From Promethearchaeota archaeon Loki_b31 (GTDB lineage Archaea > Asgardarchaeota > Lokiarchaeia > Sigyniarchaeales > SOKP01), in the NCBI GenBank assembly GCA_005222975.1, contig NJBI01000035.1, positions 1-35,867 on the forward strand: a stretch of 35,867 nt of DNA, read 5' to 3'. The notes beneath the pieces are model-generated. The model made no database searches, was not told where the DNA came from, and saw nothing but the letters and a program-made list of their open reading frames with translations. The position numbers were made by a program, and so were the translations under genes. Below, piece by piece: positions 5,461 through 24,048 of this stretch; the stretch's first letter is position 1, and each line of letters begins with the position of its first letter.

Positions 5461-6606
5461 ATGAATGTTTTATTAACAGGAGCATTTGGAAATGTTGGAT
5501 TAAGTACTTTAAAAGAATTACTAAAAAAAGATTATAATGTTAGAGTATTTGAAGTATATAACCGAAAAAATAGAAAATTAGCTAAAAAATTCAAAAACAA
5601 GATTGATATTGTTTGGGGCGACCTTAGAAATAAAGACGACATGGAGAGCGCAGTTAAAAAACAAGATGTTATTATTCATTTAGCAGCCATTATTCCACCG
5701 CTAGCAGATATTAACACAAGCTTAGCTGAATCTGTAAATGTTGGAGGAACTAAAAATTTACTTAATGCGATAAAAAATCAAGCCCAAAAACCAAAATTAA
5801 TTTTTTCTTCTTCAATTGCCGTTTATGGAGATAGATTAGATAACCCAATGATTAAAACTACTGACATCCTTGCTCCAACTCGTGGAGATCATTATGCTTT
5901 GACTAAAATTACTGCGGAAAAATTGATAAGGGATTCGGGTGTAGATTTTGCAATATTTAGATTAACATTTATTGCTTCTGTAGACAAATTAAATATGGAC
6001 CCATTGATGTTCCGTATGCCTTTAGATACTTCAATCGAAATTTGTGATACTAAAGATGTCGGACTAGCGCTCGCTAACGCTGTTGAGTGTGATGAAGTAT
6101 GGGGAGATACGTTCAATCTAGCTGGCGGAGAAAGATGTAGGATAACTTATAGAGAGTACCTTAATGATATGATGGATATTTTTGGGCTAGGTCGAAATTT
6201 TTTACATGAAGAAGGATTTGCTGAAAAAGGCTTTCATTGTGGCTTTTGCGACACCCTTAAATCCGAAAACCTATTACATTACCAAAAACACACGCTTCAA
6301 GATTATTATAAAGAAGTTGAAAAAAAAGTACGAGTGAAAAGACGTTTTGTGCCAATGGTTAAATGGATAATTCGATTGAATCTCTTAAAAAAATCGGAAT
6401 TTTACCGAAGGTTTAAATTTTTTAAGAAAAAAGCTGGAGCTTTTACTATCTCGGAAAATAAATTAATTAGAAAAATCCTTTCAAACAATTTCAATAAGAT
6501 AGAACTATTAGAAAGAAAAATCGAAAAGTTAGAAGAGTTAACTTCTGAATTTGTTGAAAAAAGAAGTATATTAATATCCACAAATCAGAGTCAATCAATA
6601 AGCTAA
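5461..6606 (+). CDS. NAD-dependent epimerase/dehydratase (extended SDR) with C-terminal coiled-coil tail
   Basis: TGAFGNVG Rossmann motif, HLAA, NVGGT, SSIAVYG and YALTK (YxxxK). Confidence 0.85.
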   Translation: MNVLLTGAFGNVGLSTLKELLKKDYNVRVFEVYNRKNRKLAKKFKNKIDIVWGDLRNKDDMESAVKKQDVIIHLAAIIPPLADINTSLAESVNVGGTKNLLNAIKNQAQKPKLIFSSSIAVYGDRLDNPMIKTTDILAPTRGDHYALTKITAEKLIRDSGVDFAIFRLTFIASVDKLNMDPLMFRMPLDTSIEICDTKDVGLALANAVECDEVWGDTFNLAGGERCRITYREYLNDMMDIFGLGRNFLHEEGFAEKGFHCGFCDTLKSENLLHYQKHTLQDYYKEVEKKVRVKRRFVPMVKWIIRLNLLKKSEFYRRFKFFKKKAGAFTISENKLIRKILSNNFNKIELLERKIEKLEELTSEFVEKRSILISTNQSQSIS

Positions 6607-6824
6607 ATTTATTAATCCTCTTGATATAGACTCCTCTTCAAATACTCTTTTTATAATCAAATTTTTTATTACTATTAAAAATTTCCATAGTAAATATTTT
6701 CGGTTTGGTGCTTATTTTACTAATTGCGTTATTAAAATTAACTTATACCGTTAAATAGAAAATAATTTAATATAAATAACATAAGAAATAAAATAACCAA
6801 CAAATTAAATAAAAAAATTAAATC

Positions 6825-6856
6825 TTTCGATATTAGAAGAAGTAAATGTATCGAAA
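6825..6856. promoter_or_regulatory. Inverted repeat TTTCGATA-N16-TATCGAAA upstream of the Sec-hdrA
   Basis: 8-bp perfect arms at 6825-6832 and 6849-6856, about 60 nt before the ATG at 6918. Confidence 0.35.
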
Positions 6857-6917
6857 ATTAATTGACAACTAAATAGAAATTCAAAATTGTAAAATTTGAG
6901 GTGGAGTAAGAAAGAAA

Positions 6918-8858
6918 ATGGAAAAATCTGAAAATCATCGGATTGGATACTATGCATGCCAGTGAGGTATAAATATACGTAGTAAAGTTGATTGCGACGA
7001 GTTAGTACAGTTTGCCAAAGGTCTAGATGGTGTGGTTATTTCAAAAATTCATGCCTTTCTATGAACAGAAAGCGGTCAAAACGAGATAATCAAAGACATA
7101 GAAGAAAAAAACTTAGATTGTATTGTAGCTTCTGCTTGAACGCCTAGGACTCACGAACCAATTTATAGAGGATCGATTGCTAAGACCGCTATGAATCCTT
7201 ACTTTTTTCAAATGGTTAACGTAAGAGAACATTGCTCTTGGTGTACTGAAGATAACGAAGAAGCTTTAGAAAAAGCAAAAATCTTGGTTCATGGCGGAAT
7301 TAATAGAGCAAAATGTTTGGAAGCCGTCCCTGTTAGAACAGTTCCCGTTGAAAAAGCAACCTTAGTTGTTGGCGGAGGAATAGCTGGGATGAACGCTGCG
7401 TTAGACCTAGCCAATGGAGGGATAAAAGTTTATTTAGTCGAAAAAAATACCACGATCGGGGGAAGGATGTCTCAGTTAGATAGAACCTTCCCAACCGACG
7501 ATTGTTCGATTTGAATTTGCGGACCCAAAATGCTTGAAGTCAATCGCCACGAAAATATCGAGATTCTAAGCTATAGCGAAGTGAAAAACGTTGAAGGATA
7601 TGTAGGAAATTATAAAATCACCGTTGAGAAGAAGTCGCGTTATATAAATAACGATTGTAATGGTTGTGGTGCCTGTTCTGAAGTGTGTCCAGTATATACT
7701 TCGAACTATTTTGACGAAAATTTAGGAGTGAGAAAAGCAATAGATATAGCGTTTGGACAAGCAGTACCTTTTTTGTACGACATTAATAGAGATGTATGCG
7801 TTGAATGTTTTAGTTGTGTGGAAGCTTGTGAGTTAGATGCTATTGACTTCAGTCAAGTGCCTGAAGAAGTTATGTTTAATGTAGGAACGATAATAATCGC
7901 AACTGGATGGGATATTTACGAACCATATGGAGAATATGGATACGGAAAGTTCGAAAATGTGATTCAACAAGCCCAACTTGAAAGAATCTTAGCACCGAAT
8001 GGTCCATTAGAAGGACACGTTCATAGAATTTCGGACGCCAAAAAACCTAAGGAGATTGTGTTTATTCAATGCGTAGGAAGTCGTGACACGGAAAGACCTT
8101 ATTGTAGTGGCGTTTGTTGTATGTTATCGTTGAAAAACGGAAAATTGCTTAAAGAAGAATTTCCAGACGCGAACATTACCATCTGCTACATAGATATAAG
8201 AACGAACGAAAAAGGTTTCGAAGAATATTATCAACGAGCTAAAGATTCTGATATCAGGATGATCCGGGGAAAGGTTGGCGAAATTACTGAAGATCCAGAA
8301 ACTAAAAATGTAAATATTCGGGTTTATTCGTCTTTAACTGACGAGATCATTAAAATTAGCGCGGATCTAGTCGTTCTATCTACAGCTGCATTGCCATCAA
8401 AAGGTACGGACCAAATAGCTCAAGTATTAAACCTAGATGTCGATAGAAACGGGTTTTTAACAGAAGCTCACTTTGGATTAATGCCACAAGAGACTAAGGC
8501 TAAAGGAATTTTCATAGCTGGGTTTGCTCAAGGACCAAAAAACATTGCGTATTCGGTTTCTCAAGCAAGAGCAGCTGCAAGTAAAGTAGCTGAATTAACC
8601 GCCCCTGGAAAAATAGATATTGAATTAATAACTGCTGAGGTTTATAAAGAGCTGTGTATTTCGTGTAAAAGGTGCGAAAAAGCATGCCCTAAAAACGCTA
8701 TAAAAGTTGTTCGTGACGAAGGTGCTGTTGTAGACGAGATAAATTGCGATGGGTGCGGGATTTGCGTTACTTGTTGTCCCACTCAAGCAATAGACATTAG
8801 ATATTATCGAGATTATCAACTATTTACTGAAATTGATGGAATTTTAGAAGGAGGTTAA
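6918..8858 (+). CDS. hdrA: Heterodisulfide reductase subunit A, selenoprotein, 646 aa with 4 predicted Sec (U16, U49, U74, U199)
   Basis: One frame from ATG 6918 (GAGGTG upstream) to TAA 8856-8858, interrupted only by TGA at 6963, 7062, 7137 and 7512. Contexts are RIGYYACQUGINI, HAFLUTESGQ, VASAUTPRTHE and TFPTDDCSIUICGPKM; the paralog at 13329 has Cys at each. Also GGGIAG FAD motif, CVGSRD and YCSGVCC, and two ferredoxin domains. Joins track ORFs 7191-7514 and 7530-8858. Confidence 0.92.
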
Positions 8859-8863
8859 ACGGA

Positions 8864-9322
8864 ATGGAGAATAATTATAAAATTGTAATATTTGCTTGTC
8901 TAAAGTGAGGATATAGCGCTGCAGATTTAGCAGGAGTCTCTCGTATGAAATATACAGCATCAGTAAAGATTATTAAAGTAAGATGCACTGGAAGAGTCGA
9001 TGTAAAGCACATCTTATATAGCATAAAAGCTGGAGCTGACGGAGTTATGGTTGTTGGATGACGACCAAATGAATGTCAGTTTAAAGAAGGAAATTTTAAC
9101 GCCCAAAGACATGTTGATTTTGCTAATAGAATTTTGGAAAAGCGAGGATTCGGTAGTCGAAGAGTTAATATGTATTGGCTAAGTAGTGCTGAGGCAGAAA
9201 AGTTTGTTAAAAGCGTCGAGGATGCGTACGAAAAGGTAAAAAGATCTGGACCCAATCCGTTAAAAAGCATGGATATTAAAAAAGTAAAACAAAAAATATT
9301 AACTACTCCCATAGAAGAATGA
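8864..9322 (+). CDS. mvhD: MvhD/VhuD [2Fe-2S] subunit, selenoprotein, 152 aa with 2 predicted Sec (U15, U66)
   Basis: ATG 8864 after GGAGGT. Reads MENNYKIVIFACLKUGYSAADLAGVSR...RCTGRVD...GADGVMVVGURPNECQFKEGN, with TGA at 8906 and 9059 opposite Cys in the paralog at 20526 (CCNWCSY, TGCHIGDC). Joins track ORF 9134-9322. Confidence 0.92.
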
Positions 9323-9341
9323 ATCTTATAAAAAAAATTTA

Positions 9342-9383
9342 GTTATAAGATGACTTACCTTGCGAAGGAGGGAGTCTAATAAT
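9342..9383 (+). promoter_or_regulatory. Putative SECIS element (eukaryote-like AUGA/GA core) downstream of mvhD
   Basis: GTTATAAGATGACTTACCTTGCGAAGGAGGGAGTCTAATAAT folds by hand into a lower stem, U9351.G9374, tandem G9352.A9373 and A9353.G9372, an upper stem CTT(A)CCT/AGGAGG and an apical loop TGCGA. It is a GC-rich spot in an AT-rich spacer right after two TGA-containing genes. Confidence 0.72.
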
Positions 9384-9433
9384 AGTTTAATTTGTTAATA
9401 TGTGCATTTAATAAATAGGTAAATGAAGGAAAT

Positions 9434-10942
9434 ATGGTTCAAGTTGTAAATAGCAAGTTATTTAAGGGAATTTCTCCCAAAGACTTAATGGAGGCTACTT
9501 ATCAAGCTTCGGGAAACTTTCAAGTTAGAGCTTTTTTTGAAGCAAAAGAAGAGATATTGAAAGTAAATAAATTTTCTGAAAACGAATTTTACGAAATCCT
9601 AGATGCTATGATAGAAGCAGAAACTGAGCGTAAATTAGTACTGAAAGAATTAATGGGGAATAAGCCGTTATTTTTAGAGGAAATCGTAAAGATCGTCAAA
9701 GATTTCCCTCCTGAAAATGTTATTGGAGATGTTATATATTTAAAAGAACAGGGGTATGTTCAGGAACATGTGGAAATCAAGACTAAAACGGTTATAAAAA
9801 AAATCAAGGGAGAAGAAAAAGAAGTTGAAGTGAAAGAATTCTTTTATAGGTACCAAGTAAGGGATTTACCAGACGATTTTATTGAGTACTATTTTGAACC
9901 TGTTTCTATAGTTTTTAACGCGGGAGTCTGTTGTCAATGTGGATGGTGCTCTGCGATCTGTCCTGTAAACGCCATTGTAGTAACGGCAGACACTCTTGAA
10001 ATTGACGAAGATATTTGCATGAAATGTGGGTTGTGTTTTTCGGTCTGTCCTCGTTCCTTTTCGATAGATCAAGCTAACGAAAGCATTAAAAAGTTAGACA
10101 AATCTTTAAAATGGTCTGACAAAACTGGAGCTTATATTAACGCTTACTCAGCATCAACGACCAAAGATGATATTAAGAAAGTTCGTCAAGATGGTGGTAT
10201 TGTAACTTCTATCTTGGAATATCTTTTAGATAATAATCTTGTTGATGCAATTGTAGCTGTGCAGCATTCTGAGGAATTATGGAGACCAGAACCTGTAATA
10301 GTAGAAAGTGTGGAAGATTTATATAAAACGGGTGGAACTAAATATGCAAATTCGCCTTCTTTAACCATCATAGATCAATGTAAGAAATACGAGAAGATAG
10401 CTTTCGTAGGAGTGCCTTGCATGATGAAAGCTATAGAAAAGGGGACTATGTTTCCAAGTGGGTTACCATTTTTTAAAAATATTAAATACAAGATCGGTCT
10501 TTTTTGCATGGAATCATTCCCTTACGACGGAATAATTAATTTAGCTAAAGAACAGTTTAATAAGGACATAAACGAACTAACCAAAATGAATATTGGAGGC
10601 GGTAAATTTATAATAAATTTGAAATCTGGAGAGCAAATGGATGTACCACTTAAAGAAGTGCAAAAATACGCGCGTGATAATTGTCATTTTTGTGAAGATC
10701 TAACATCAGATTACGCCGACATTTCTGTAGGATCGATTGGGTCGCAAGATGGATGGTCTTCTGTAATAACGAGATCGAAAGATGCAGATAAACTATATAA
10801 CGATATAGTTAAAGCAGGATTAATCGAATCTAAGAGTTTAAAGGATGTAAAGCCCGGGCAATTTCTAGTTGAAAAAATTGGTGTAAGTAAACGAAAAAAA
10901 TGTAAATCAATAAATTTAAAAGAGAATCAAGATGGACACTAA
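9434..10942 (+). CDS. FrhB/FdhB-family F420-binding subunit with ferredoxin domain and extra ~150 aa N-terminal (winged-helix-like) domain
   Basis: CCQCGWCSAICP, CMKCGLCFSVCP, QDGGIVT, VGVPC, IGLFCMESF and CHFCEDLTSDYADISVGSIG. Confidence 0.85.
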   Translation: MVQVVNSKLFKGISPKDLMEATYQASGNFQVRAFFEAKEEILKVNKFSENEFYEILDAMIEAETERKLVLKELMGNKPLFLEEIVKIVKDFPPENVIGDVIYLKEQGYVQEHVEIKTKTVIKKIKGEEKEVEVKEFFYRYQVRDLPDDFIEYYFEPVSIVFNAGVCCQCGWCSAICPVNAIVVTADTLEIDEDICMKCGLCFSVCPRSFSIDQANESIKKLDKSLKWSDKTGAYINAYSASTTKDDIKKVRQDGGIVTSILEYLLDNNLVDAIVAVQHSEELWRPEPVIVESVEDLYKTGGTKYANSPSLTIIDQCKKYEKIAFVGVPCMMKAIEKGTMFPSGLPFFKNIKYKIGLFCMESFPYDGIINLAKEQFNKDINELTKMNIGGGKFIINLKSGEQMDVPLKEVQKYARDNCHFCEDLTSDYADISVGSIGSQDGWSSVITRSKDADKLYNDIVKAGLIESKSLKDVKPGQFLVEKIGVSKRKKCKSINLKENQDGH

Positions 10943-12044
10943 AACATTTCAGGATTTAATAAAGGAAGTACACGATATAGGCATTTGTCAAGAATGTGGA
11001 GGCTGTGTAAGTTTTTGTAGCTCAGCAGAATATAATGTTATTGGATTTAAAGACCAATATTTGCCTCCAGTATATATTAACGAAGATAAATGCCTCGAAT
11101 GTGGAATATGTTATTATATTTGTCCACAAACACATGTTTTAGACGATGATCTCAACAAAACCTATAATTTTTCTGATTTTTCTTCTATGCCAATCGGATT
11201 TTACGAGGATATATATTCGTGTCAAGCCTCTGATGAGGAATTTTTAGAATATGGAACTGATGGCGGTGTAGTGAACTCAATAATAAATTATTTGATAGAA
11301 AAAAAAATGGTTGATGGAGCAATTGTTTCGAGGACTGAAGCTCCTTTTTCCAGGGAAGCAACTTTTGCCGATAATAAACGTGATTTAATAAGATCTTCTG
11401 GAACTAAATTGGATATCTCGCCTCATTTAGACGAGATACAAAAGTTTAGTACTTATACTCATTCAATTCCAGAATTGAATCATTATAAATTCAAAAAATT
11501 AGCGGTAGTGGGTACTCCTTGCCAATTATATACGATCAGGTGTATGCAAGATTTAGGAGTGACTCCTTCTGAAAATGTTGAGATATGTCTTGGCTTATTT
11601 TGTTATGAAAATTTCTTTTTTGAAAAATCGCAGATAAAGAAATTTGAGAAAGATTTTAACATAAAATTTTCTGACATTGTTAAGATCAACATCAAAGAGG
11701 ATGTGATTTTTAGATTAAAAAGTGAAGGAACAGGAGAAAAAATAATCCATATTCCATTTAATCATTTAAAAGAGTATAAGCGTCCAGCCTGTAACGCTTG
11801 TGATGACTTCACTAATATTTTTGCTGATATCTCATTTGGAGGGTTAGGCTCACCTGATAAATATACTACTGTTATACCTCGAACTGAGAAAGGCAAAAGT
11901 ATTTTATCTCAGGTAATTAATGCTGGAATAATTAATTGTTTAGATTTAGATTCGAATAAAAAAACTAAAATGACTGAGTTAATTTCCCAATTTTCTCAAT
12001 CAAAAATTAAACGTAAAGAAGATTTTATGAAGAATATAATTTAA
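10932..12044 (+). CDS. FrhB/FdhB-family F420-binding subunit with ferredoxin domain
   Basis: CQECGGCVSFC, CLECGICYYICP, GTDGGVV, VGTPCQ, LGLFC and CNACDDFTNIFADISFGGLG. Overlaps the previous gene by 11 nt. Confidence 0.85.
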   Translation: MDTKTFQDLIKEVHDIGICQECGGCVSFCSSAEYNVIGFKDQYLPPVYINEDKCLECGICYYICPQTHVLDDDLNKTYNFSDFSSMPIGFYEDIYSCQASDEEFLEYGTDGGVVNSIINYLIEKKMVDGAIVSRTEAPFSREATFADNKRDLIRSSGTKLDISPHLDEIQKFSTYTHSIPELNHYKFKKLAVVGTPCQLYTIRCMQDLGVTPSENVEICLGLFCYENFFFEKSQIKKFEKDFNIKFSDIVKINIKEDVIFRLKSEGTGEKIIHIPFNHLKEYKRPACNACDDFTNIFADISFGGLGSPDKYTTVIPRTEKGKSILSQVINAGIINCLDLDSNKKTKMTELISQFSQSKIKRKEDFMKNII

Positions 12045-12057
12045 AGAGGAGTCTATT

Positions 12058-13329
12058 ATAACAGAAACAAAAAGAGATATTGAGAGAAAAAAGTTATTTG
12101 GAGATACCTTAGATTATTTAGACAAAATTTATGAACCAGATTTAAGAAAGCTATTAAAGAAATGCTATCAATGCGGTCGATGTAGCGGAGTTTGTCAATT
12201 AAGTAAGGTACAAAAATACACTCCAAGTAAAATTATTCAATTAATTTTAGAGGGTTTTGAAGAAAAAGTATTAAAGAGCGAGGTATTATGGGATTGCCTG
12301 ACGTGTAATTTGTGTCTTGCGATATGTCCAGAGGAAATAAACTTTGCAGATCTTGTTAGAATGGCCAGATATAAGATGAGGCATTCATACAATCAAAATA
12401 TCGATGAATCAATAGCACATAAAGGAATCTATACGACGATTTCAGAAATAATAAGTCGTCCATATATTAATCCAGATAGATCTCTCGAATGGATTCCTAA
12501 GGGTTGTAAAACATCGAGTAAAGGGAATATTTTATATTTTGTTGGTTGTTTACCTTATTTCAATTACGAATTTGATAATTTAGATTCTATAGCAAAAAGT
12601 ACGCTACAAATTTTATGTAAAGTCGAAAAAGAACCAATAGTCGTTTTTAAGGATGAAATTTGTTGCGGACACGATATATACTGGGGTCAAGGAAAGTTAA
12701 AAACATTTATTAAGTTAGCAAAAAAAAATATTGAAATGTTTGAGAAAGCAGGAGTCTTTACTATCGTAACTGCTTGTGCTGAATGCTATAGAACTTTTAA
12801 GATTGACTATCAAAAAATTTTTGAAGATTTTAACGAAAAATTTGAAGTAAAGCATATTATTGAATACATTTATGAGATGTGGAAGGAAGGTAAAATAGAA
12901 TTCATAAATACGAGTAAACTTGAAGAACAAATCCCATTTACATATCACGATCCATGTAGATTAAGCAGGTTTTTACCCAAAGAAAATAATATTACTGAAA
13001 GTGTTCGGGAAATATTTAAGGAATTCAATAAATTAGGTTATAATTTTAACGAGATGGAACATAATAAATCAAACTCTTTATGTTGTGGTGTGAATTCTTG
13101 GATGAATTGTAATGAGAAATCTAAAGCTCTTAGATATAAAAGAATGTTAGAAGCCAAATCTGCTGGTACAGTAATGGTAACCTCTTGCCCGAAATGCCGA
13201 ATACATTTATCTTGTCTCCAAAATGATATCGAAGAAATTTCTTCAATAGAGATATTAGATTTCTCTGAGTTTTTAATAAATCATATTAAAGTTATTGAAT
13301 CCAATAGAAAAAGTGAGGAACAGAAATAA
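12058..13329 (+). CDS. HdrD/GlpC-like Fe-S oxidoreductase (2x[4Fe-4S] plus two CCG domains); start extended upstream of track ORF 12310
   Basis: The frame is open from 12040 and encodes CYQCGRCSGVC and CLTCNLCLAICP; the track start at 12310 cuts the second motif. GAGGAG at 12046-12051 precedes ATA 12058. CCG motifs YFVGC/EICCG/TACAEC and HDPC/LCCG/TSCPKC. TAA overlaps the next ATG. Confidence 0.8.
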   Translation: MTETKRDIERKKLFGDTLDYLDKIYEPDLRKLLKKCYQCGRCSGVCQLSKVQKYTPSKIIQLILEGFEEKVLKSEVLWDCLTCNLCLAICPEEINFADLVRMARYKMRHSYNQNIDESIAHKGIYTTISEIISRPYINPDRSLEWIPKGCKTSSKGNILYFVGCLPYFNYEFDNLDSIAKSTLQILCKVEKEPIVVFKDEICCGHDIYWGQGKLKTFIKLAKKNIEMFEKAGVFTIVTACAECYRTFKIDYQKIFEDFNEKFEVKHIIEYIYEMWKEGKIEFINTSKLEEQIPFTYHDPCRLSRFLPKENNITESVREIFKEFNKLGYNFNEMEHNKSNSLCCGVNSWMNCNEKSKALRYKRMLEAKSAGTVMVTSCPKCRIHLSCLQNDIEEISSIEILDFSEFLINHIKVIESNRKSEEQK

Positions 13330-16300
13330 TGGAAGGGTCGGTATTGGTCATTGGCGCTGGTATTGCTGGAATCCAAACCTCTTTAGATCTAACCGAACTT
13401 GGATTTAAAGTTTATCTTGTAGAAAGATCGCCTTCAATTGGCGGAAGGATGGCTCAACTTGATAAGACTTTCCCTACGAATGATTGTAGCCTCTGCATTT
13501 TAGCTCCGAAAATGGTTGAGGTGTTTAGAAATCCTAATATTGAGCTAATGACTTATCACGAAGTTAAAAAAATTAGTGGAGATGCTGGAAATTTTACCGT
13601 CACTGTTCTAAAAAAGCCTCGTTATCTTGAAGAATCCTTGTGCAAGGGGTGCGGGGATTGCGCAGCAAAGTGTCCTAAAATTGAAGTTCCTAATCTCTTC
13701 GATATGAATCTTGGCAAAAGAAAGTCAATTTATATACCTTTTCCACAAGCGGTCCCTCCAGTATACCTAATTGATCCCGAGCTTTGCCTTAAAATAACTA
13801 AAGGTGTGTGCGGAGTCTGTCAAAAAGTATGTACGGTTGAAGCGATAGATTTTGAGCAAAAACCTCAAGAAATTAAAATTAATGTGGGGGCTATTGTTGT
13901 AGCAACGGGATTTGATATGCCTGCTGAACAATTAAATTCAAGATGGGGGTATCGATATCAAAATGTAGTGAGCGCTTTAGAATACGAAAGAATATTATGC
14001 GCCTCTGGTCCGTTTGAAGGTCATGTCTTACGCCCTAGTGACCAAAAAGAACCTGAGAAAATAGCTTTCATTCAATGTGCGGGCTCAAGGGATTTACATG
14101 AAGGAATTCCTTATTGTTCGTCAGTATGTTGTATGTATAGCGCCAAAGAAGCGATCATAACTCGGGAACACTCAGATAATACTGAATGTTTTGTTTTTAG
14201 ACACGATATCAGAGCATATGGAAAAAACTTTTATGAATTTACCCAAAGAGCTCAAGAAGAATATGGCGTAAAATATTTTCAGACAAAAATAAGTAATATT
14301 GAAGAAGACACGGAAACTAACGATTTAATTATTCGCTATGAAGATTTAAAAAATGGAACATTTAATGATTTCCGAGCTAATTTAGTCGTTTTAGCTACAC
14401 CGTTGGTTCCTACAAAAGGAACAGAAGAATTAGCAAGCATCTTAAAAGTTGAATTAGACAAATACAATTTTTTTAAAGAAAAATCTTATTTTAACAAATC
14501 CTTGTCATCAAAAGGGGGAGTTTTCTTATGTGGTTTCTGTCAAGGACCAATGGACATACCCGAAACTGTTGCTGACGCAAGTGGAGTAGCATCTCAAGTC
14601 GCAATGTTACTAAATTCAGTAAAATTTAACGCAATTAAAGAAAAGAAATTTGATGAACCTGAAAAGGAAGTAAAGATTACAGACGAACCACGTATAGGAG
14701 TGCTTATCTGTCACTGTGGGATTAACATTGGAAAATATGTTGATGTTTCTAGTGCTGTAGATTATGTTAAAACATTACCTTATGTTGTTCATTGTGAAGA
14801 TAATATGTATTCTTGTTCTAGTGATTCCCAAGTAAGAATAAGAGAATTGATAAAAGAACATAATCTTAATAGATTTATCGTAGCTTCGTGTACGCCAAGA
14901 ACCCATGAATCATTATTTCAAGAAACCTGCTTAGAAGCTGGATTAAACAAATATTTATTCGAAATGGTTAATATACGCGACCAATGCAGTTGGGTTCATA
15001 TGAATGAATATGAATTTGCAACTGAAAAATCTAAAGATTTGATACGAATGGCTGTTGCTAAAGCGCGGTTACTAAAACCTCTTACTGAAACAAAATTAGA
15101 TATTACACCAACCGCTTTAATTATTGGTGGTGGTGTAACTGGTATGACTGTTGCCCTCAATCTTGCTAATCAAGGATTTAAAACATATATTGCTGAAAAA
15201 GAAGATAATTTAGGAGGTAATCTTAACAACCTTAATATTTTATATCCAATCCACGAGGAGGCTTCAAAATTTTTAAAAGAGATTATAAACAAAGTTGAGA
15301 AAAATAAAAATATCCAGATTCTTCTCGAGTCAGATATTAAAGAAATTAAAGGATTTATCGGTAATTATAATGTTTCTATTACCGCATTAAATCAAAAAGT
15401 TCACGATTTAAAAGTTGGTACAATTATTATTGCTACTGGAGCTCAAGAGTTAAAACCAGAAGGTATTTTTCAGTATAGCAAAAATAATAAAAATGTACTT
15501 ACTCAATTAGAATTAGAAAAAAGATTGAAAGAAGAGGGTAAATCTTGGCTCGACAACATAAATCGCATAACGATAATCCTCTGTGTCAATTCAAGGCAAA
15601 AGGAAGGAGAAGGAATAACTTATTGCTCAAATATTTGCTGTGGAGTGAGTATTAAAAATATTAGTATTTTAAAAGAATTAAAACCAAACCTCGAAATTGT
15701 TGTTCTGTACAGAGATCTTCAGATGGCTAAAAAGGAGTTTGAAGAATACTATCGTGAACGTAGAAAAGAGGCTATGTTTCTGAGATATGACTTAGAAAAC
15801 ATACCAAAAATAATGAAAAAAAGCGGTAAATCCGAAAAATATCAAGTATCTGTATTTGACACGAATTTACAAGATAATCTTCAATTTGATACAGATTTAA
15901 TTGTATTATCAACTCCTATGATTCCCTCTGACAATTTAGAAGGATTAGCTAGGATGCTAAAAGTACCATTGGATAAAAATGGTTTTTTCTTAGAAGCACA
16001 TGTTAAGCTAAGACCTTTAGATTTTGCTACAGATGGCATTTTTCTAAGCGGATGTGCCCAATGGCCAAAGAACATTCAAGATTCAATTTCCCAAGCTAAT
16101 GGAGCTGCGGGGAGAGCAAGTAGATTTTTAAGTGCTAAAACAATTACAAGCTCAGGATTGATAGCCGAAGTAAACCCGGGAAGATGTATAGGTTGTGGGA
16201 AGTGTGAATCCGTTTGTCCATATAATGCTATTGAACTTAAGGAAGCAATTATGGACTTTGAAGAAATTAGTTTAAAAGTTTCAAAATCCTTTATTAACTC

Positions 16301-16421
16301 AGCACTGTGTAAAGGTTGCGGCACTTGTGCGGCAACATGTCCAAACGGCGCAATATCTGTAAAGCATTATGATTTCGATCAAATTTATGCTATGATAGAA
16401 TCTTATTTACTAGAATCGTAA
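13329..16421 (+). CDS. hdrA: Large HdrA-like protein with two FAD modules (Cys-type), 1030 aa
   Basis: GAGIAG and GGGVTG FAD motifs, TFPTNDCSLC, CAGSRD/YCSSVCC, an internal RIGVLICHCG...CTPRTHE...CSWVH domain, and a C-terminal ferredoxin. Confidence 0.9.
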   Translation: MEGSVLVIGAGIAGIQTSLDLTELGFKVYLVERSPSIGGRMAQLDKTFPTNDCSLCILAPKMVEVFRNPNIELMTYHEVKKISGDAGNFTVTVLKKPRYLEESLCKGCGDCAAKCPKIEVPNLFDMNLGKRKSIYIPFPQAVPPVYLIDPELCLKITKGVCGVCQKVCTVEAIDFEQKPQEIKINVGAIVVATGFDMPAEQLNSRWGYRYQNVVSALEYERILCASGPFEGHVLRPSDQKEPEKIAFIQCAGSRDLHEGIPYCSSVCCMYSAKEAIITREHSDNTECFVFRHDIRAYGKNFYEFTQRAQEEYGVKYFQTKISNIEEDTETNDLIIRYEDLKNGTFNDFRANLVVLATPLVPTKGTEELASILKVELDKYNFFKEKSYFNKSLSSKGGVFLCGFCQGPMDIPETVADASGVASQVAMLLNSVKFNAIKEKKFDEPEKEVKITDEPRIGVLICHCGINIGKYVDVSSAVDYVKTLPYVVHCEDNMYSCSSDSQVRIRELIKEHNLNRFIVASCTPRTHESLFQETCLEAGLNKYLFEMVNIRDQCSWVHMNEYEFATEKSKDLIRMAVAKARLLKPLTETKLDITPTALIIGGGVTGMTVALNLANQGFKTYIAEKEDNLGGNLNNLNILYPIHEEASKFLKEIINKVEKNKNIQILLESDIKEIKGFIGNYNVSITALNQKVHDLKVGTIIIATGAQELKPEGIFQYSKNNKNVLTQLELEKRLKEEGKSWLDNINRITIILCVNSRQKEGEGITYCSNICCGVSIKNISILKELKPNLEIVVLYRDLQMAKKEFEEYYRERRKEAMFLRYDLENIPKIMKKSGKSEKYQVSVFDTNLQDNLQFDTDLIVLSTPMIPSDNLEGLARMLKVPLDKNGFFLEAHVKLRPLDFATDGIFLSGCAQWPKNIQDSISQANGAAGRASRFLSAKTITSSGLIAEVNPGRCIGCGKCESVCPYNAIELKEAIMDFEEISLKVSKSFINSALCKGCGTCAATCPNGAISVKHYDFDQIYAMIESYLLES

Positions 16422-20525: not shown

Positions 20526-20957
20526 ATGTCAAAATCAACAAAAAAGAAAATGAATTGGAATCCAGAGCTAATTACCTTCTGTTGCAATTGGTGCTCTTAT
20601 GCGGGAGCTGATTTGGCAGGGGTTTCTAGATTTCAATATCCACCCAACATGAGAATTGTTAGAGTTATGTGCTCTGGAAGAGTCGAACCTTCTTTTGTTT
20701 TAAAAGCTTTAAAGGATGGAGCAGATGGGGTCTTAATAACTGGGTGTCACATTGGAGATTGCCATTACATAAGCGGTAACGAGTTTACGAAAGAAAGGTT
20801 TGAAAGATTACATAAAATAATAATTAAGCAATTGGGTATAAACGAAAAACGCGTTAGGTTGGAGTGGGTGTCTGCTTCTGAAGGTAAGCTTTTTGCTGAA
20901 TTAATTACAGATTTTACGAACGATATAAAACGATTAGGGCCGTTAAAAGTTTTTTAA
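20526..20957 (+). CDS. mvhD: MvhD [2Fe-2S] subunit, Cys-type
   Basis: FCCNWCSYAGADLAG, VMCSGRV, GADGVLITGCHIGDCHY and WVSASEG. Confidence 0.93.
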   Translation: MSKSTKKKMNWNPELITFCCNWCSYAGADLAGVSRFQYPPNMRIVRVMCSGRVEPSFVLKALKDGADGVLITGCHIGDCHYISGNEFTKERFERLHKIIIKQLGINEKRVRLEWVSASEGKLFAELITDFTNDIKRLGPLKVF

Positions 20958-21043
20958 GAAAATAAAGATGAATTTCTCTTATAATTATTATATTAGTTTT
21001 TTAGTCTTAATCGTTTTGACATTAAATTCAAATTGTTAGAATT

Positions 21044-21121
21044 AGATCATTTCTTTCTGGTAGAATCTTTAATCTTGATCATTAAAACACCTTTTTTGTC
21101 GCAAACAGATCATTTAAACAC
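21044..21121 (+). repeat. Three phased GATCATT direct repeats upstream of the third hdrA
   Basis: GATCATT at 21045, 21077 and 21108 (spacings 32 and 31 bp). Copies 2 and 3 extend to GATCATTAAAACAC and GATCATTTAAACAC (13/14 identical). Confidence 0.45.
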
Positions 21122-21285
21122 AATTCATTATCGAAACTCGCCAAGTTTGGTGCATAATATTTATATAAATGTTTTTACTTATTTATTGATTAACCAAACT
21201 TTTCTTAACTCATTTGTTAAGAATTATTATTTTAAAAAGAAAAGAATTTAAGGTATTTTTAATTCCAAAAGGAGCGTTATGAATA

Positions 21286-24048
21286 ATGGAAGGTTCTGTG
21301 TTGGTTATTGGTGGAGGAATTGCTGGAATTCAAACTTCTTTAGACCTAACTGAGTTAGGATTTAAAGTTTATTTAGTAGAAAAAGAGCCTACAATAGGAG
21401 GTCATATGGCTCAATTCGATAAATTATTTCCCGCACACGATTGTAGTTTATGTGTCCTAGCTCCCAAAATGGTTGCAATATATAAGAATCCTAATATTGA
21501 GCTATTTACTTTATCTGAGGTAAAAATGGTCTCTGAAAGTTCAGGAACTTTTACAGCAACAATAGTTAAAAAGCCACGATATATTGATGAAACAAAATGC
21601 AGAGGATGTGGTGATTGTGCAGCAAAGTGTCCTAAAATTGAAGTTCCTAATCTTTTTGATATGAATTTAGGGAAAAGAAAATCAGTGTACATTCCATTTC
21701 CACAAGCTATCCCTCCAGTTTACCTAATAGATCCTGAATTATGCTTATATTTGAACCGGGAGGTATGTGGGGTTTGTAAAAAGGTTTGCAAAGGTGAAGC
21801 AATAGATTTCAATCAGGAACCTCAGGAGATTAAATTGAAAGTTGGAGCAATTGTAATAGCTACTGGTTTTGATATGTATGGTGAAGAATTATCTGAACAT
21901 TGGGGATATCAATATAAAAATGTTGTTAACGCCTTAGAGTACGAAAGAATCTTATGTCCTACTGGACCATTTGGTGGTAATGTATTACGTCCTAGTGATG
22001 AAAAAGAACCTGATACGATTGTATTCATACAGTGCGTTGGTGCTGGTTATAAAGAAAAAAGCGTTTCGTATTGTTCACGAGTATGTTGTATGTATACTGC
22101 TAAAAATGCAATACTGACAAAAATCTATTCGGAAAACATAAATGTTACTGTTTTTAGGCATAACATCAGAGTTTTTGGTAAAAACTTTTATGAATATACA
22201 AAAGAAGCTCAGGATAATTATGACATTAAATATTATCGCACTAAAATTAAAGAAATTAAAGAAGATTCAGAAACTAATGATTTGATAATTCATTATCAAA
22301 ATTTGAAGACAGGTGAGGAAGAAGAATATAGAGCGAATATGGTAGTTTTAGCGGCACCATTAGTTCCCTCAAAAGGAACAAATGAATTATCAAAAGTTTT
22401 AAATGTCGATCTAGATAATTATAATTTCTTTAAATCAAGATCTTTCATTGATAATTCTTTATCTACGAGAGATAGAATCTTTTTATGTGGACTCTGTCAA
22501 AGCCCAATGAATGTATCAGAAACAGTAAGTCATGCGAGTGGCATAGCAGGACAAGTAGCGGTATTATTGAAAGATGCAAAATATTCGCAGATTACAGAAA
22601 GAGAAATTGGTATATTTCCAAAGGAAGAGGTTATAAAGATTACTCCAAAAGCGTTAATAATAGGCGGTGGAATTTCAGGAATGACCGCAGCATTAAACAT
22701 TGGATCTCAAGGATTTCAAACAATTATTATCGAAAGAGAGAAAATTTTAGGGGGAAATTTAAATCAGATTAATATTATCTATCCTGGTCAACATGCAGCT
22801 TTTGAATTTGTCAAAAGTATTAAAGAGAAAGTTAACAAGCACCCTAATGTCAGCGTGTACTTAGAATCTAAAATTAAGAGTATTGATGGTTCAATTGGTA
22901 ATTATGAGATAAATTTTTTTGATAAAAATGAAAAAACTCATATCGATAAAGTAGGAATAATCATAGTGGCTACTGGAAGTCAAGAATTAAAACCGCATGG
23001 AAATTTTCAATATAGTAAAGAAAATGAGAATATAATTACTTTATTAGAATTGGAATTGAGACTAAAAAAGCAAGATATGACTTGGCTTGATGAAATAAAA
23101 CATATTACAATCATTTTATGCGTAGAATCGAGGCAAAAAGAGGGGTTTTCTTATTGTTCTAATGTATGTTGTAGTAATGCTATTAAAAACATTAAAATCT
23201 TAAAAGAACTTAAGCCAAACCTCGAGATTCTAGTGCTCTTTAGAGACCTTCATATGGCTAAGAAAGAATTCGAGGATATTATGAGTGAAAGAAAAAAATT
23301 AGCTAATTATATGAGATATAATCTTGAAAATTTACCAAAGATAAGTAAAATAAACCCAAATCCTGAAAAGTATAAAATAAACCTATGTGATGATACCAAT
23401 CCTAGTAATATTCTCGATTTTAATACTGATCTTATAATATTATCTACTCCTATGGTTCCACCTGAGGCTATAGAAGATTTATCAAGTATGCTTAATGTTC
23501 CTTTAGATGAAAATGGTTTTTTTATTGAAGCTCATAATAAATTACGACCTTTAGATTTTGCTACAGAAGGTATTTTCATATGTGGTTGTGCTCAATGGCC
23601 AAAGAACATTCAAGATTCGATATCACAGGCAAATGGAGCTGCAGGTCGTGCAAGTAGATATTTAAGTATAAAAGAAATAACGAAGACAAAATTAGAATAT
23701 CTTTCATTTATGCTATCAATTGAGTGTTTCTTCAAAGATATGATTGTAAACCCAGAGAAATGTAATGGATGCGGTCAATGTGTTGAAGTGTGTCAGTTTA
23801 AAGCGATTTCACTCGCAGATTTAAAACAAGAATATGAAGATGTGAGTTTACTTGTTAATAAAGCCTTTATTAATCCTGCTATATGTAAAGGTTGCGGAAG
23901 ATGCGCTGCAGTTTGTCGATTAAAGGCGATTGATGCCAGACACTATGATTTTAAACAAATCTCCTCAGTTATGGATCCCTATTTCTTAAAAAAAGTAAAA
24001 AGTGAAGAAAGCTTGAAAGATAAAGAAGGAATTAGCGCTATGAATTAA
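21286..24048 (+). CDS. hdrA: HdrA-like protein with two FAD modules (Cys-type), 920 aa, lacking the internal Cys-rich domain
   Basis: Colinear with 13329-16421 (MEGSVLVIG.GIAGIQTSLDLTELG..., EAH.KLRPLDFAT.GIF). GGAG SD before the ATG. Confidence 0.88.
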   Translation: MEGSVLVIGGGIAGIQTSLDLTELGFKVYLVEKEPTIGGHMAQFDKLFPAHDCSLCVLAPKMVAIYKNPNIELFTLSEVKMVSESSGTFTATIVKKPRYIDETKCRGCGDCAAKCPKIEVPNLFDMNLGKRKSVYIPFPQAIPPVYLIDPELCLYLNREVCGVCKKVCKGEAIDFNQEPQEIKLKVGAIVIATGFDMYGEELSEHWGYQYKNVVNALEYERILCPTGPFGGNVLRPSDEKEPDTIVFIQCVGAGYKEKSVSYCSRVCCMYTAKNAILTKIYSENINVTVFRHNIRVFGKNFYEYTKEAQDNYDIKYYRTKIKEIKEDSETNDLIIHYQNLKTGEEEEYRANMVVLAAPLVPSKGTNELSKVLNVDLDNYNFFKSRSFIDNSLSTRDRIFLCGLCQSPMNVSETVSHASGIAGQVAVLLKDAKYSQITEREIGIFPKEEVIKITPKALIIGGGISGMTAALNIGSQGFQTIIIEREKILGGNLNQINIIYPGQHAAFEFVKSIKEKVNKHPNVSVYLESKIKSIDGSIGNYEINFFDKNEKTHIDKVGIIIVATGSQELKPHGNFQYSKENENIITLLELELRLKKQDMTWLDEIKHITIILCVESRQKEGFSYCSNVCCSNAIKNIKILKELKPNLEILVLFRDLHMAKKEFEDIMSERKKLANYMRYNLENLPKISKINPNPEKYKINLCDDTNPSNILDFNTDLIILSTPMVPPEAIEDLSSMLNVPLDENGFFIEAHNKLRPLDFATEGIFICGCAQWPKNIQDSISQANGAAGRASRYLSIKEITKTKLEYLSFMLSIECFFKDMIVNPEKCNGCGQCVEVCQFKAISLADLKQEYEDVSLLVNKAFINPAICKGCGRCAAVCRLKAIDARHYDFKQISSVMDPYFLKKVKSEESLKDKEGISAMN

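Follow-up and report, generated by a model that had tools for sequence, protein, structure and literature searches.

The hdrA and mvhD genes in a 35,867-nucleotide (nt) stretch of DNA from Promethearchaeota archaeon Loki_b31 (contig NJBI01000035.1, positions 1–35,867, referred to below as the window) contain six in-frame UGA codons, which are almost certainly selenocysteine (Sec) codons rather than breaks in the reading frames. They are followed by a complete selenocysteine insertion sequence (SECIS) of the Loki type (lokiSECIS), a three-helix structure located at 9305–9375 on the plus strand, as are hdrA, mvhD and the frhB-like gene described below. Judged from its sequence, the locus is very probably an ordinary member of the hdrA-vhuD/mvhD tandem published for Lokiarchaeia (Promethearchaeia), in which one mRNA would carry both cistrons and a single Loki-type SECIS would act on all six UGAs. 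Because this interpretation is essentially the published one, the sharing of one SECIS by hdrA and mvhD falls in an already known class (2016, 2024). An earlier note on this DNA had proposed that one downstream SECIS serves six UGAs. That proposal stands in so far as a sole eukaryote-like signal is recognizable, as has been published for this lineage (PMC4989117, PMC11227280), but the position and the fold that it assigned to the element do not.

Selenocysteine codons of hdrA and mvhD

When UGA is read as Sec, hdrA (6918–8858, ending with the TAA stop at 8856–8858) encodes a 646-residue protein similar to heterodisulfide reductase subunit A, with matches to the Pfam Fer4, Pyr_redox_2 and FAD-oxidoreductase families (ferredoxin-type 4Fe-4S and FAD domains). 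The frame is preserved in 12 full-length orthologues with 81–95% identity. The second gene, mvhD (also vhuD or frhD; 8864–9322), encodes a 152-residue protein of the FlpD family (PF02662, 1.1e-43). As the earlier note had read, the two genes are separated by a gap of 5 nt, from the TAA at 8856–8858 to the ATG at 8864, and the Shine-Dalgarno sequence of mvhD (GGAGGT, 8850–8855) lies within the 3′ end of hdrA. The stop codon of mvhD is itself a UGA (9320–9322) and falls within the SECIS core.

The in-frame UGAs were assessed by aligning the window proteins with those of the genome's three other Sec-type pairs and with Cys-type paralogues, and the hdrA codons also by alignment with the orthologues. 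All six UGA columns, four in hdrA and two in mvhD, hold Cys or Sec in every aligned sequence. The first Sec codon of hdrA (6963–6965) specifies residue 16 in the motif CQUG; this column contains Sec in three Sec paralogues, Cys in three Cys paralogues, and Sec in all 12 orthologues. The third (7137–7139, residue 74) aligns with Sec in the C61 paralogue, with Cys in the other paralogues and, again, with Sec in 12 of 12 orthologues. The fourth (7512–7514, residue 199, motif CSIUIC) is at the canonical Sec position of HdrA, previously placed at about residue 200 (Mariotti 2016, PMC4989117); it is Sec in all four Sec paralogues, Cys in the Cys paralogues (CSxC), and UGA in every one of the 12 orthologues. 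The second codon (7062–7064, residue 49) is more variable: all six paralogues have Cys in this column, while the orthologues are divided between Sec (7/12) and Cys encoded by UGY (5/12). This looks like recent switching between Sec and Cys at one ligand position, residues 16, 74 and 199 being always UGA.

The two Sec codons of mvhD, at 8906–8908 (residue 15, motif CLKUG) and 9059–9061 (residue 66, motif VGU), are about 50 codons apart. Both columns contain Sec in three Sec paralogues and Cys in seven Cys paralogues, and each of 22 mvhD orthologues from the same genus has two TGA codons. The hdrA gene thereby encodes the HdrA domain set and has a UGA for the canonical Cys site around residue 200, and mvhD encodes the FlpD domain and has UGAs at two conserved Cys sites, the features expected of Sec-containing HdrA and of Sec-containing VhuD/MvhD/FrhD, respectively. 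Cys-type copies of hdrA and mvhD are also found in the window (13329–16409 and 20526–24048), the latter region consisting of an mvhD gene (20526–20957) followed by a gene for a 920-residue HdrA-like protein (21286–24048); Sec and Cys isoforms therefore adjoin each other.

Structure of the lokiSECIS

In the published lokiSECIS consensus, an AUGA is followed by a 9-bp stem with an 11-nt loop, which has adenines at its start and AG at its end, and then by a GA, which is replaced by AA in VhuU (PMC4989117). A whole-genome scan with this pattern located an element at 9319–9353, which reads AUGA, AUCUUAUAA, AAAAAAUUUAG, UUAUAAGAU and GA, as well as matching elements within 12 nt 3′ of the three other Sec-type mvhD genes and at five further places. 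A covariance model (R1), built from nine lokiSECIS elements of the genome and searched with filters off, gave one strong match in the 35.9-kb window, at 9316–9356 (51.1 bits, E 4.5e-10), all others scoring at most 17 bits. Two additional pattern matches (in C88 and C19) were discarded, as they were not recovered by R1 at E up to 1. The second-best R1 match in the window (11602–11650, +; 17 bits, E 0.1) lies inside a second frhB-like gene and comprises an AUGA, a stem, a 19-nt loop and a GA; it is most likely due to chance.

The AUGA at 9319–9322, the 5′ half of the G.A quartet, directly precedes the main stem and is invariant in 11 elements of the genome and 22 orthologous elements. The main stem, helix II, pairs 9323–9331 with 9343–9351; all nine pairs are Watson-Crick at this locus, and eight of the nine covary across the alignment. 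It is capped by an 11-nt apical loop (9332–9342, AAAAAAUUUAG) that opens with at least five A and closes with an AG that is invariant in the element alignment, so that the first five positions are A-rich and the last is a G preceded by an A. The 3′ half of the quartet follows straight after the stem (GA, 9352–9353; GA or AA in all elements). The element is located near the 3′ end of a selenoprotein gene, singly and after VhuD, and each of the four Sec-type hdrA-mvhD pairs of the genome has exactly one such element, positioned between an overlap with the mvhD stop and 12 nt past it. The defining features of a lokiSECIS that can be assessed from sequence are all present here.

Two further helices appear to complete the structure. 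Helix I pairs ACUCCC (9305–9310), within the last codons of mvhD, with GGGAGU (9370–9375). Helix III is a mini-hairpin (9358–9368; CCUU at 9358–9361 with AAGG at 9365–9368, loop GCG) that separates the 3′ GA from the 3′ strand of helix I. The unconstrained minimum free energy fold of 9301–9380 is this three-way structure (−15.1 kcal/mol, z −2.1). Helix I occurs in 16 distinct versions among 22 orthologues, including ACCCCC/GGGGGU, ACUCCUGU/AUAGGAGU, AGCUCCC/GGGAGCU and GCCCCUUA/UAAGGGGU. A second covariance model (R2), with 71 positions, matches 9305–9375 with 106.7 bits. In its alignment of 62 distinct sequences, which was fitted to the model and is thus biased in favor of the model's structure, 93.7% of the cells are paired, compared to 41–62% with slid partners. 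In the same model-guided alignment, all six pairs of helix I are changed on both sides (95.9% of cells paired), and all four pairs of helix III covary (87.4% paired). A hairpin of at least 4 bp is present at the place of helix III in nine of nine unrelated SECIS elements of the genome (null 0.43, tail 5e-4). Tests of helix I on the nine paralogues were less clear, with a weak duplex-energy permutation result and a modest position-restricted one (tail 0.017, at least 6 bp); the case for helix I is based on covariation among orthologues rather than on these tests. With MAFFT and RNAalifold on end-trimmed elements, misalignment of the 3′ parts left helix II as the only helix recovered, and the model-guided alignment was used instead.

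Based on this comparison, we tentatively propose, as a possibility that we consider less probable than not, that the Loki-type SECIS is a conserved, k-junction-like three-way junction rather than a simple stem-loop, in which helix III and the closing helix I could form part of the platform for an archaeal SECIS-binding factor, and which would perhaps be intercistronic, given co-transcription of the frhB-like genes. The only detail of this locus that may not have been described before is the covarying three-way junction. The covariation support from 62 distinct sequences for the three-helix architecture could guide structure probing, the design of reporters and the search for a binding protein.

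Proposed recoding of six UGAs and alternative explanations

The search for a second recoding signal considered Loki, eukaryotic, methanogen and bacterial types of element, and none was found in mvhD, hdrA or the 5′ leader. With R1 (filters off, E up to 10), nothing was detected from 6600 to 9315 on the plus strand. The earlier note had suggested a scan with both Asgard and eukaryotic models; the Loki-type model gives the single strong match at 9316–9356, while no Rfam SECIS family matches the window at gathering scores, or 6600–9500 at E up to 10. The Rfam matches in the latter interval are at chance level and include a C/D-box snoRNA model over 9305–9375 (E 6.5). A relaxed K-turn pattern scan of 6600–9450 returned only 9319–9353 (2.6 expected in shuffles), and a scan of the same region for the GAA/A pattern of methanogens returned none. 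No stable hairpin is present in the 60 nt 3′ of each of the six UGAs (z −0.8 to +1.5 against shuffles). These results agree with the note, which had found neither a convincing hairpin after individual UGAs nor a second AUGA/GA element. Across 13 full orthologous and three paralogous loci, both searched with filters off, and across 43 further orthologous loci, R1 finds one match each after mvhD (38–52 bits); other matches in these loci score at most 19 bits and occur at no recurring place in hdrA or mvhD. The C17 and C23 paralogues have TGA-containing open reading frames (ORFs) upstream of hdrA, which were judged to be non-coding because their translations are of low complexity and have no Pfam match.

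The genome encodes components of a Sec pathway. SepSecS (1e-114, C59:32358–33515) and a PSTK-like gene (9e-41) are present, and a local scan identified a candidate tRNA-Sec, whose anticodon is UCA and whose T-loop has an insertion of 31 nt, at C59:32015–32131 (+; L073:216–332), about 230 nt upstream of SepSecS. The same oddity, an insertion in the T-loop, was described for the tRNA-Sec of Lokiarchaeota (Mariotti et al., PMC4989117). Genome-wide searches with ARAGORN and Rfam gave no tRNA-Sec above cut-off; ARAGORN also reported a doubtful intron-bearing tRNA-SeC at C59:34501–34681 on the opposite strand. Among 1434 long open frames, 154 end with TGA; of the latter, 150 close again within 100 codons, which argues that UGA is not reassigned. 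By this measure UGA is a normal stop elsewhere in the genome.

From the sequence, we infer that hdrA and mvhD are co-transcribed and that the hdrA codons are served by the SECIS at 9305–9375. In the most likely scenario, both cistrons would be on one mRNA, each started from its own Shine-Dalgarno sequence. The SECIS would recruit the Sec-specific elongation factor and Sec-tRNA(Sec) via a binding factor, and would exert its effect in cis over 260 to 2356 nt, on ribosomes that pause at any of the six UGAs upstream of it. In the earlier note, recoding reaches across a TAA stop and re-initiation. This would not be a special hurdle, since each cistron has its own Shine-Dalgarno sequence and the SECIS would act on the mRNA, irrespective of the history of the ribosome. 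A ribosome finishing mvhD is expected to melt helix I, and probably the core too, so that the availability of the SECIS may be coupled to the translation of mvhD.

Several observations count against this interpretation. Some transcripts could end early at T6 runs within hdrA, of which there are two, near 7204 and 7771. The PSTK match is under the NCBIfam cut-off, and the tRNA-Sec candidate scores 28 bits against an Rfam gathering score of 47, a low score that is attributable to its T-loop insertion. Furthermore, the finding of a single SECIS is based on models of known SECIS types, which a signal of another form would escape. This last point leaves some room for the hdrA UGAs to be recoded by a signal of their own, of unknown type, located within hdrA or in the 5′ leader, with the element at 9305–9375 acting for mvhD only, and the C17 paralogous locus does have a weak R1 match about 150 nt upstream of hdrA (18.9 bits, E 0.05). 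That match, however, was rejected: it folds as a simple hairpin with a loop of 5 nt, and nothing corresponding to it was found at the window locus or in 43 orthologues. RNAz detected no other conserved structure in these Loki genes (Mariotti et al., PMC4989117), and residue 49 of HdrA toggles between Sec and Cys without any local element. We thus regard a separate hdrA signal as improbable. Less credible still is that the UGAs are true stops in a decaying hdrA pseudogene or gene fragments, or that they are read through or reassigned without a SECIS. Under translation table 11 hdrA does appear in fragments, but its frame is otherwise intact and its UGAs are at Cys columns and are kept in orthologues with 81–95% identity; in addition, four Sec-type hdrA-mvhD pairs occur in this one genome with a SECIS at each, UGA is a working stop genome-wide, and Sec machinery is present.

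A different fold of the element itself had been put forward in the earlier note, which took the SECIS to be a compact hairpin at 9342–9383, with AUGA at 9350–9353 opposite GA at 9372–9373. This segment alone folds stably (−9.3 kcal/mol, z −2.6), and an AUGA is indeed present at 9350–9353. The R1 match is nevertheless at 9316–9356, with the core formed by AUGA at 9319–9322 and GA at 9352–9353. The AUGA at 9350–9353 is composed of the last AU of helix II and the true GA, while the GA at 9372–9373 is inside helix I. Neither is maintained in orthologues: the region equivalent to 9350–9353 reads GGUGA, GGCGA, GACGA, AGAAGA or AUAAC, with CGA, AGA or UAA in place of the proposed AUGA, and the proposed 3′ GA site is replaced by GGGGGU or UGGGGU. 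In the comparative fold, 9370–9375 pairs with 9305–9310, and the 7-bp stem and 3-nt loop of the hairpin are at odds with the lokiSECIS consensus. The hairpin, which fuses the true 3′ GA and helix III with the 3′ strand of helix I, was ruled out on these comparative grounds and has a negligible chance of being the functional fold; by the sequence comparison, the earlier SECIS is about 35 nt too far downstream and misfolded.

Downstream of the SECIS is an frhB-like gene (9434–10942; Pfam FrhB_FdhB_N and FrhB_FdhB_C), whose nearest public relatives are from metagenome-assembled genomes of Promethearchaeota/Promethearchaeia (Loki-type Asgard). This gene is syntenic in all orthologous loci and starts 32–66 nt past the SECIS. 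The spacer is AT-rich and poorly conserved; T5–T7 runs are present in 25 of 44 sequences, while the spacer of the window (9376–9433) has T3 at most. Many orthologues have a UUUU right after helix I and a T5–T7 run in the middle of the spacer, both of them possible archaeal terminators. The ATG of the frhB-like gene is preceded by a purine-rich GAAGGA or GGAUGG. The sequence is compatible with a SECIS at the 3′ end of its transcript as well as with an intercistronic one, so that the longer operon in which the earlier note placed the element is a possibility only.

LokiSECIS elements are also found elsewhere in the genome. An element at C46:32388–32422 (+; L013:2089–2123; R1 42.6 bits) is 8 nt past a 161-residue ORF (L013:1595–2080) that contains two adjacent UGAs (GCUU), has no Pfam match and may encode an uncatalogued selenoprotein. 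Another, at C28:15767–15801 (+; L011:3068–3102; 38.2 bits), is 20 nt past a zinc-ribbon-like ORF of 69 residues (CPFC...CQNC; L011:2838–3047), which needs four UGAs as Sec and has only faint matches to Pfam zinc ribbons. The element at C34:17887–17921 (−; L012:301–335; 48.6 bits), in which helix III is present and helix I is not clear, follows a 66-residue ORF (L012:345–545, −) with a hydrophobic stretch, one UGA in GGIUPC and no Pfam match. Contig C87 has two elements. The first (C87:31031–31065, +; L015:2032–2066) is strong (47.7 bits) and has no convincing selenoprotein ORF upstream, the only ORF nearby being one of 37 residues with CxxC...CxxC (L015:1878–1991). The second (C87:124931–124965, +; L016:2032–2066) is the SECIS of a small VhuU-type ORF (L016:1883–2086, motif DCULSCAAH), which comes after a gene for a [NiFe]-hydrogenase large subunit; its AUGA...AA core is the published VhuU exception, and the stop UGA is within the AUGA.

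Comparison with known systems

In bacterial SECIS elements, a hairpin directly follows each UGA on its 3′ side; the six folds downstream of the UGAs in the window (z −0.8 to +1.5) do not conform to this arrangement. The vhuD-hdrA genes of Methanococcales and Methanopyrus belong to the same selenoprotein families, and there, too, the two Sec codons of VhuD are served by one 3′ element. However, the methanogens are described as having a SECIS for each gene and an HdrA with one Sec (PMC4989117), and no element of the GAA/A type was found in the window locus by the pattern scan of 6600–9450. Reporters in M. maripaludis indicate that the methanogen SECIS works without a strict limit on the distance to the UGA, up to 679 nt (PMC9622424); these distances concern another type of element than the lokiSECIS.

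The element resembles the eukaryotic type I SECIS, a kink-turn in the 3′ untranslated region (UTR), in its AUGA...GA quartet, in the adenines of the apical loop, and in its putative kilobase reach and ability to serve several UGAs. It differs in having a shorter upper stem, and has no Rfam SECIS match even at the relaxed threshold. In contrast to eukaryotic elements in the 3′ UTR, it overlaps a coding end, and it resides on a prokaryotic bicistronic unit. No homologue of SBP2 was found in Lokiarchaeota (PMC4989117). In a k-junction, the non-bulged strand of a kink turn carries an additional helix (Wang et al. 2014, PMC4005666; Li et al. 2023, PMC10573300). The lokiSECIS is similar in topology only, with a G.A/A.G core at the basal end of helix II, helix I as the closing stem, and a third helix that branches from the 3′ (non-bulged) strand. 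Its structure is predicted from sequence, and since the 5′ linker before the G.A pairs is 7–10 nt rather than a 3-nt bulge, we consider this a resemblance and not membership.

The closest parallels are in the Asgard archaea. Huang et al. (2024, ISME J 18:wrae111, PMC11227280) found that hdrA and frhD of Asgard archaea are always neighbors with a common eSECIS-like type I structure, and that an overlap of the stop UGA with AUGA is common in Lokiarchaeia. Relatives of the source genome, for example isolate bin41, are in the lineage surveyed in that study; bin41, cited in a 2026 review, is among the public relatives of the window. The locus agrees with the eSECIS-like type I in its neighboring genes, its single element, the overlap of stop and AUGA, and the lower stem with an internal loop. 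Helix III has no equivalent in the main text of PMC11227280, which describes no hairpin within the 3′ part of the internal loop.

For Lokiarchaeota, Mariotti et al. (2016, Mol Biol Evol 33:2441, PMC4989117) described one lokiSECIS after VhuD that is common to HdrA and serves up to six UGAs over about 2 kb. The AUGA, the 9-bp stem, the 11-nt A-rich loop ending in AG and the GA are alike in the two elements; the main text of that study covers the 9-bp stem, loop and core, and mentions neither helix I nor a mini-hairpin on the 3′ side. At the sequence level, the shared SECIS is the main argument for long-range, eukaryote-style Sec recoding in archaeal relatives of eukaryotes, and would hold the record for a single element, with six UGAs served across more than 2 kb. 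The window locus brings no new principle to it, and contributes a clean six-UGA example with exact coordinates for the element. It shares with the Lokiarchaeota tandem the gene order, the very short gap, an HdrA with multiple Sec that include the canonical site near residue 200, a VhuD with two Sec, and a single 3′ element; nothing of substance differs, and of the five Sec positions that have been reported in Loki HdrA, the copy described here holds four.

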